Source: Escherichia coli (GTDB lineage: Bacteria; Pseudomonadota; Gammaproteobacteria; Enterobacterales; Enterobacteriaceae). From it: a DNA stretch of 12,329 nt. The notes beneath the pieces are model-generated. The model did not search any database. It was not told the DNA's origin and was given only the letters and a program-made list of their open reading frames with translations. This document shows, in pieces, positions 8,311 through 8,456 of the stretch. The stretch lies in the NCBI RefSeq assembly GCF_003334315.1, contig NZ_QOWR01000084.1, one strand, 5' to 3'. The position numbers were made by a program, and so were the translations under genes. Every line of letters begins with the position of its first letter. The first letter of the stretch is position 1.

Positions 8311-8354
8311 CTAACCGCTATCCCTCTACTGTATCCCGGATTCAAAGGTCGCAA

Positions 8355-8363
8355 ATTATAACA
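8355..8363 (-). promoter_or_regulatory. gyrA: gyrA promoter extended -10 element (TGT-TATAAT on the minus strand)
   Basis: Seen: minus-strand reading of 8355-8365 is TGTGTTATAAT, i.e. a perfect TATAAT with an upstream TG (extended -10), about 45 nt upstream of the gyrA ATG. No good -35 hexamer at 17 bp spacing (nearest is TTTACC at 19 bp). Memory: consistent with the known supercoiling-sensitive gyrA promoter. Confidence 0.6.
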
Positions 8364-8394
8364 CAGCCGCGCAGTTTGAGGTAAACCTATACGC

Positions 8395-8422
8395 TTTATT
8401 CACATCCAATGCCTGATATACT
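8395..8422 (+). promoter_or_regulatory. ubiG: Tentative ubiG promoter (-10 TATACT at 8417-8422; weak -35 TTTATT at 8395-8400)
   Basis: Seen: hexamer TATACT 35 nt upstream of the ubiG ATG, with a poor -35 at 16 bp spacing. Sequence resemblance only. Confidence 0.2.
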
Positions 8423-8456
8423 CGTTTGTCTTGCCAATTACGGAGTAGAAGTGCCA

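Follow-up and report, generated by a model that had tools for sequence, protein, structure and literature searches.

Two back-to-back extended -10-type promoters probably serve gyrA and ubiG in a compact Escherichia coli intergenic region

We conclude that the short region between gyrA and ubiG of Escherichia coli very probably (about 0.85) carries two autonomous sigma-70 promoters of the extended -10 type, arranged back to back, and that the gyrA promoter (PgyrA) is the classical relaxation-stimulated promoter. The gyrA feature is the already-known E. coli promoter: our parse of it is confirmed and brings no new biology, and the literature already covers the -10 hexamer TATAAT, the mapping of relaxation stimulation to about 20 bp and the TGTG motif.

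The window analyzed here is a 12,329-nt stretch of E. coli DNA, and its gene coordinates are the RefSeq annotation carried over, with an offset of 90 bases, from an identical K-12-derived locus (L001). The 546 bp round the site match 5426/5426 complete E. coli genomes, and K-12 derivatives are 100% identical. gyrA and ubiG diverge from an intergenic region of exactly 146 bp (8311-8456). The minus strand carries, in this order, an alpha-2-macroglobulin-family gene in the yfaS position, yfaT, yfaA and gyrA; yfaL, also on the minus strand, runs from 9307 past the end of the window. The large open reading frame at the left end (71-3307, minus strand) is the gene in the yfaS position, and its counterpart in the K-12-derived reference ER1709 has an internal stop and is annotated as a pseudogene. 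A predicted terminator-like hairpin lies about 20 nt past the gyrA stop codon and ahead of yfaA; it is consistent with gyrA being transcribed alone. The features on which the analysis relies are as follows.

5646-5663, minus strand: terminator-like hairpin, AAGGGAGCTATCTCCCTT with a T-rich tail (consensus scan, pattern match only)
5683-8310, minus strand: gyrA coding sequence, DNA gyrase subunit A, 875 aa (open reading frame list and RefSeq annotation of L001)
8311-8347, minus strand: gyrA 5' untranslated leader, 37 nt (CUUUGAAUCCGGGAUACAGUAGAGGGAUAGCGGUUAG), with a GAGGG ribosome-binding region (start table)
8347, minus strand: gyrA transcription start, C (Kim et al. 2012, Table S1, PMC3415461)
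8348-8354, minus strand: gyrA discriminator TTGCGAC, the 7 nt from hexamer to start (sequence and start table)
8355-8360, minus strand: gyrA -10 hexamer TATAAT, consensus (read from the sequence; conservation)
8361-8365, minus strand: gyrA extended -10 element TGTGT (sequence; conservation; TGTG noted in PMC8695583)
8380-8385, minus strand: weak -35-like hexamer TTTACC (4/6), 19 bp from the gyrA -10 (sequence, conservation)
8393-8401, plus strand: conserved block GCTTTATTC in the ubiG -35 zone, -37 to -29 from the ubiG start (80-90% conserved, Enterobacteriaceae)
8414-8422, plus strand: ubiG extended -10, TGATATACT, TGn plus TATACT (5/6) (motif scan, conservation, mapped start)
8430-8456, plus strand: ubiG transcription start (C at 8430) and 27-nt leader (PMC3415461, Table S1)
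8442-8446, plus strand: ubiG ribosome-binding site GGAG(T) (GGAGT columns conserved)
8457-9179, plus strand: ubiG coding sequence, 240 aa (annotation)

On the minus strand, positions 8363 to 8355 read TGTTATAAT, that is, TG, one further base and a consensus -10 hexamer. The canonical TG occupies 8363-8362, and a second TG at 8365-8364 extends it to TGTG. Transcription starts were taken from Table S1 of Kim et al. 2012 (PMC3415461), a genome-wide map that gives the position, reads and 5' untranslated region (5'UTR) length of each start, together with the 51-nt sequence ending at it; we put these positions onto the window by anchoring them to the gyrA and ubiG start codons. The gyrA start is listed at NC_000913.2 position 2337479 on the minus strand, with 49 reads, a 37-nt 5'UTR and a sequence that ends in ...TATAATTTGCGACC / ...TGTGTTATAATTTGCGACC. 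It corresponds to the C at 8347, 8 nt below the hexamer, which places the hexamer at -13 to -8 and the TG at -16/-15. By this single start-site data set, PgyrA has a recognizable -10 with a start in the range of about 5-9 nt downstream, and the TG stands one base above the hexamer, as in the extended -10 class. Both the gyrA and the ubiG start (49 and 30 reads) come from this one high-throughput data set and fall on C rather than on a purine; the SMRT-Cappable-seq supplements hold no entry for either gene, and a full-text literature search with the promoter sequence itself found no paper. A sequence-only reading of the window had counted 146 bp between the two start codons, placed TGT-TATAAT at 8355-8363 of the minus strand and interpreted it as an extended -10 promoter, a view that would fall with a start incompatible with the 8355-8360 hexamer. 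The mapped start is compatible with that hexamer, the distance and the motif are as described, and the interpretation is further supported by the conservation described below and by the literature on the -10 region and TGTG.

We asked how often such motifs arise by chance. TGNTATAAT (TGnTATAAT) occurs once on the two strands of the window, against an expectation of 0.17, and at least one copy turned up somewhere in 31/200 shuffles. The looser TGNTATAMT occurs twice (expected 0.32; at least two in 9/200 shuffles). Both copies fall within the 146 bp between the genes, each directed at its own gene, and by our own arithmetic the expectation for such a placement in the right orientation is about 0.001-0.002 per site. 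It is the conservation and the start-site data that make the gyrA motif more than chance.

To follow the promoter across species, we used a degenerate pattern for the GyrA N-terminus, which is independent of the promoter sequence, to collect 120 loci from species-representative Enterobacterales and Aeromonas genomes, and aligned the 114 distinct 140-nt upstream sequences with MAFFT. No sequence departs from T8363 or G8362 (114/114), and the base that follows them varies (T59/A45/G10). In the hexamer, the first T, the A and the last T likewise show no variation (114/114). The second TG is 96% conserved, so that the motif reads TGTGnTAtaaT. An invariant TG next to a variable n is the pattern predicted for selection on an extended -10 element. 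The discriminator is partly conserved, its TT and AC being kept and its middle GCG variable, and the spacer at 8366-8379 is poorly conserved within the 49 Enterobacteriaceae.

A good -35 element at functional spacing is lacking from PgyrA. The candidates are TACCTC (1/6) at 17 bp, TTACCT (3/6) at 18 bp and TTTACC (4/6) at 19 bp; thus, the best match at 16-18 bp is 3/6 and the best overall is the 19-bp TTTACC. A two-hexamer consensus scan (16-18-bp spacing) returned no promoter in the intergenic region. The sequence-only claim that gyrA has no convincing -35 therefore stands at canonical spacing, whereas the conservation of TTTACC at 19 bp qualifies it. That conservation leads to another view of PgyrA, namely, a conventional -35/-10 promoter with a long spacer of 18-19 bp, in which GTTTACC would contact sigma region 4 and the TG would be accessory. 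The TTTACC columns are 60-88% conserved in the 114 sequences, Erwiniaceae have TTCACC (4/6) at the optimal 17 bp, island-bearing E. coli genomes (see below) keep TTTACC at exactly 19 bp although the sequence upstream has diverged, and the legend to Fig. 1 of PMC6170449 draws both a -10 and a -35 for PgyrA. Judged from the alignment, such conservation suggests that the element is not irrelevant. We nonetheless consider a conventional promoter unlikely, since the match stops at 4/6, a 19-bp spacing is at the edge of sigma-70 tolerance, and only 1/6 bases match at 17 bp. Moreover, the TG is invariant and the -35-like bases are not, and PMC6170449 maps the regulated activity to 20 bp round the -10.

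The ubiG promoter (PubiG) can also be assigned. Table S1 of PMC3415461 places the ubiG start at position 2337562 on the plus strand (30 reads; 5'UTR, 27 nt), and the sequence up to it ends in ...CTGATATACTCGTTTGTC. Relative to this start, the extended -10 TGATATACT lies at -16 to -8, so that a TGn and a -10 are found at the right distance from a mapped start, as expected of an extended -10 promoter. PubiG and PgyrA share the layout TGnTATA(A/C)T-N7-C(+1), and PubiG is the mirror copy. In Enterobacteriaceae, CTGATATACT is conserved at about 100%; outside this family, the -10 is kept and the TG is off its canonical position (ATGTATAAT, GTTTATACT). This assignment overturns the earlier view that the ubiG promoter is not confidently identifiable. 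The accompanying proposal, that it may overlap the gyrA promoter back to back, was right about the orientation and wrong about the overlap: the distance is 83 bp between the two starts and 56 bp between the -10 hexamers, no core base pairs are shared, and the two -35 zones (8380-8385 and 8393-8401) are adjacent only. We would expect the far-upstream polymerase footprints of the two promoters, and nothing else, to overlap.

The mechanical open reading frame of ubiG begins at an in-frame ATG at 8409, which would give a protein of 256 aa. We rejected this codon for initiation because the mapped transcript begins only downstream of it, at 8430, and the annotated 240-aa start at 8457 is therefore the usable one; the UbiG N-terminus aligns from residue 1 in most species, in keeping with the start at 8457. 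A search of the intergenic region for small open reading frames and repeats gave mechanical frames and one 8-nt two-copy repeat alone, all of which we judged to be chance. This direct repeat, AAGGTCGC (GCGACCTT on the gyrA strand), is found at 8299-8306 and 8345-8352, with one copy at the gyrA transcription start and the other in gyrA codons 2-4, and is probably coincidental.

In nearly all of the Enterobacterales and Aeromonas loci whose flank was long enough, a divergent ubiG sits upstream of gyrA, and the intergenic region measures about 132-280 bp. Depending on the species, 43 to 181 bp separate the two -10 hexamers, and we therefore rejected a fixed helical phasing between the promoters. 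Within Enterobacteriaceae, the values are spaced about 12-13 bp from one another (43 for Enterobacter asburiae and Leclercia, 56 for Escherichia, 68-69 for most genera), and larger ones, up to 181, occur elsewhere (loci L002-L121). By comparison of these sequences, about 12 bp between the two -35 zones seem to have been lost in Escherichia. Two records titled Enterobacter ludwigii and Enterobacter cancerogenus (L111 and L117) have a Pantoea-type gyrA/ubiG upstream region (TGTGATATACT) and an intergenic region of 176-177 bp, and may be mislabelled or contaminated.

In 141/5426 complete E. coli genomes, among them AR_0077 and SMS-3-5, a 3.9-kb island separates gyrA from ubiG. It carries genes for an enzyme of the mandelate racemase/muconate-lactonizing family, an MFS transporter and a GntR regulator. 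In the AR_0077 record, it was located as follows.

L122 3190-3560 and L123 300-4215: island in E. coli AR_0077 (NZ_CP026755.1)

The break point is near 8365/8366, and homology to the window stops just upstream of TGTG. On the gyrA side, these genomes have TTTACC-N19-TATAAT with TGTG and an identical leader. On the ubiG side, TGCTATACT lies about 32 nt ahead of the ATG, and the leader differs; the N-terminus of ubiG is also different in island-bearing genomes. Each gene thus keeps its TGn -10 core despite the island, which indicates that the two promoters are autonomous modules. E. coli does not require the compact divergent layout.

These genomes bear on the idea that the back-to-back layout is itself regulatory, such that transcription from PubiG would put negative supercoils into the 83-bp gap and repress the relaxation-preferring PgyrA, PgyrA would act on PubiG in turn, and ubiquinone synthesis would be tied to gyrase supply. 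A divergent promoter placed 92 bp from PgyrA does inhibit it by 24-68% via transcription-coupled supercoiling (PMC6170449), the native start-to-start distance is a comparable 83 bp, and the divergent pair is kept in nearly all of the loci surveyed. However, the spacing between the hexamers ranges widely among species, and the 141 island genomes retain both cores intact, which implies that any coupling is dispensable. PubiG is also not strong (30 reads), a study of the supercoiling response does not list ubiG in its supplementary files, and the literature searched yielded no paper linking gyrA and ubiG. We therefore think such regulation quite improbable, and favor two autonomous promoters.

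The sequence between the two promoters includes the conserved block GCTTTATTC, which stays 11 nt from the ubiG -10 while its separation from the gyrA -10 varies. It matches TTGACA at no more than 3/6 positions and, as far as sequence comparison can tell, might serve as a binding site or as an A+T-rich upstream element. The block lends some weight to a third alternative, in which control would be dominated by proteins bound between the -10 elements, through repression by Fis and activation by CRP, rather than by the promoter core. CRP reportedly controls gyrA transcription positively, a result that a citing paper ascribes to Gomez-Gomez et al. 1996. On the minus strand, 8404-8400 reads TGTGA, a CRP half-site. 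We rejected a full CRP site here: the half-site stands single and is not conserved outside Escherichia. The literature also has Fis regulating both gyrA and gyrB (PMC4770202, PMC6639932) and repressing the gyrase genes (PMC6639932). Still, the spacer at 8366-8379 and much of 8402-8412 are poorly conserved, and factors of this kind modulate a core promoter and do not replace it. Dominance of bound proteins over the core thus seems possible, though doubtful, and we retain the core promoters as the main determinants.

The gyrA leader is very strongly conserved in Enterobacteriaceae, at nearly 100% in the 49 members compared. Identity across the discriminator plus the 37-nt leader (8311-8354) is 96.8%, versus 84.1% at third codon positions of gyrA, and is 54% in the 40 nt upstream of the gyrA -10. 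The leader RNA folds worse than 200/200 shuffles (z = +1.88), and an Rfam search of the leader gave no match at E<=1. On these two grounds we rejected a structured RNA element, and the poor folding means that RNA structure does not account for the conservation. The leader also contains a direct repeat, GGGATA-N8-GGGATA, whose copies at 8336-8331 and 8322-8317 (minus strand) are spaced by 14 nt. The ribosome-binding region is overlapped by the second copy (GUAGAGGGAUAG), which resembles the CsrA consensus RUACARGGAUGU, with 9/12 positions in agreement. The promoter cores leave the near-invariance of the leader, its unstructured RNA and the GGGAUA pair unexplained. Conceivably, then, the leader and initial transcribed sequence with its two GGGAUA copies exert an unrecognized control over gyrA, either as a determinant of supercoiling sensing or through a post-transcriptional regulator such as CsrA, to which the ubiG promoter could add supercoiling cross-talk; we regard this as rather a long shot.

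Our preferred model accordingly centers on the two promoter cores. Sigma would contact the TG and the consensus -10 of PgyrA (TGTGTTATAAT, start at 8347), so that recognition would rely mainly on the hexamer and the TG(TG) just upstream; by analogy with known extended -10 promoters, we infer that a good -35 is unneeded and that the poorly spaced TTTACC adds little. PubiG (TGATATACT, start at 8430) fires in the opposite direction from 83 bp away. Output from PgyrA goes up as DNA loses negative supercoiling, which provides feedback on the supply of gyrase, and the sensor comprises about 20 bp round the -10 together with the first transcribed bases. Relaxation-stimulated transcription has been established for exactly this promoter (PMC6170449, PMC4770202, PMC6639932). 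According to PMC6170449, which cites Menzel & Gellert 1987 and Straney et al. 1994, the stimulation comes from a 20-bp sequence round the -10, and PMC4770202 describes it as intrinsic to DNA elements round the promoter, especially the -10; together, these sources support the earlier suggestion that the promoter architecture is consistent with relaxation-stimulated control. TGTG raises the affinity of RNA polymerase and damps output, and the gyrA promoter has been described as carrying 5'-TGTG-3' (PMC8695583). For gyrA and gyrB, one explanation offered is that the open complex is over-stable and transcription becomes abortive as a result (PMC8422995). In such a scheme, the likeliest in our view and still debated, the strong -10 and TGTG contacts would make the open complex over-stable on negatively supercoiled DNA, escape would become limiting, and relaxation would ease it, giving homeostatic control of gyrase.

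The expression of gyrA sets the DNA supercoiling capacity of the cell, and its promoter is the textbook case of a promoter switched by relaxation, yet how PgyrA senses relaxation is still debated. Any mechanism must explain the invariant TG(TG), the near-consensus -10, the conserved but mis-spaced -35-like element and an initial transcribed region that is both unstructured and very strongly conserved. With the natural 3.9-kb island variant, a means of testing whether the neighboring ubiG promoter matters is already at hand.

Compared with known systems, the promoter described here has the same locus, sequence, TATAAT hexamer, relaxation stimulation and TGTG as the PgyrA of Menzel & Gellert 1987 and Straney et al. 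1994, from which it does not differ in kind; our additions are the invariance of the TG in 114/114 sequences, the window coordinates and the island variant. With the extended -10 (TGn) class, PgyrA and PubiG share the TG, a weak or mis-spaced -35 and a start 8 nt below the hexamer. PgyrA, assigned to the class by sequence, differs from it in that TGTG accompanies a perfect consensus -10; the more usual role of TGn is to offset a weak one (PMC8695583). The synthetic divergent pair PT7A1/O4-PgyrA (PMC6170449), at 92 bp, has a distance similar to the native 83 bp from start to start. Unlike in that pair, the native PubiG is modest and not inducible, the spacing ranges over 43-181 bp, and 141 E. 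coli genomes have the arrangement interrupted. Finally, the mycobacterial gyrase operon follows the same homeostatic logic, with gyrase expression rising upon relaxation, but there the response is determined by distal elements or overlapping promoters and not by the -10 region (PMC4770202).
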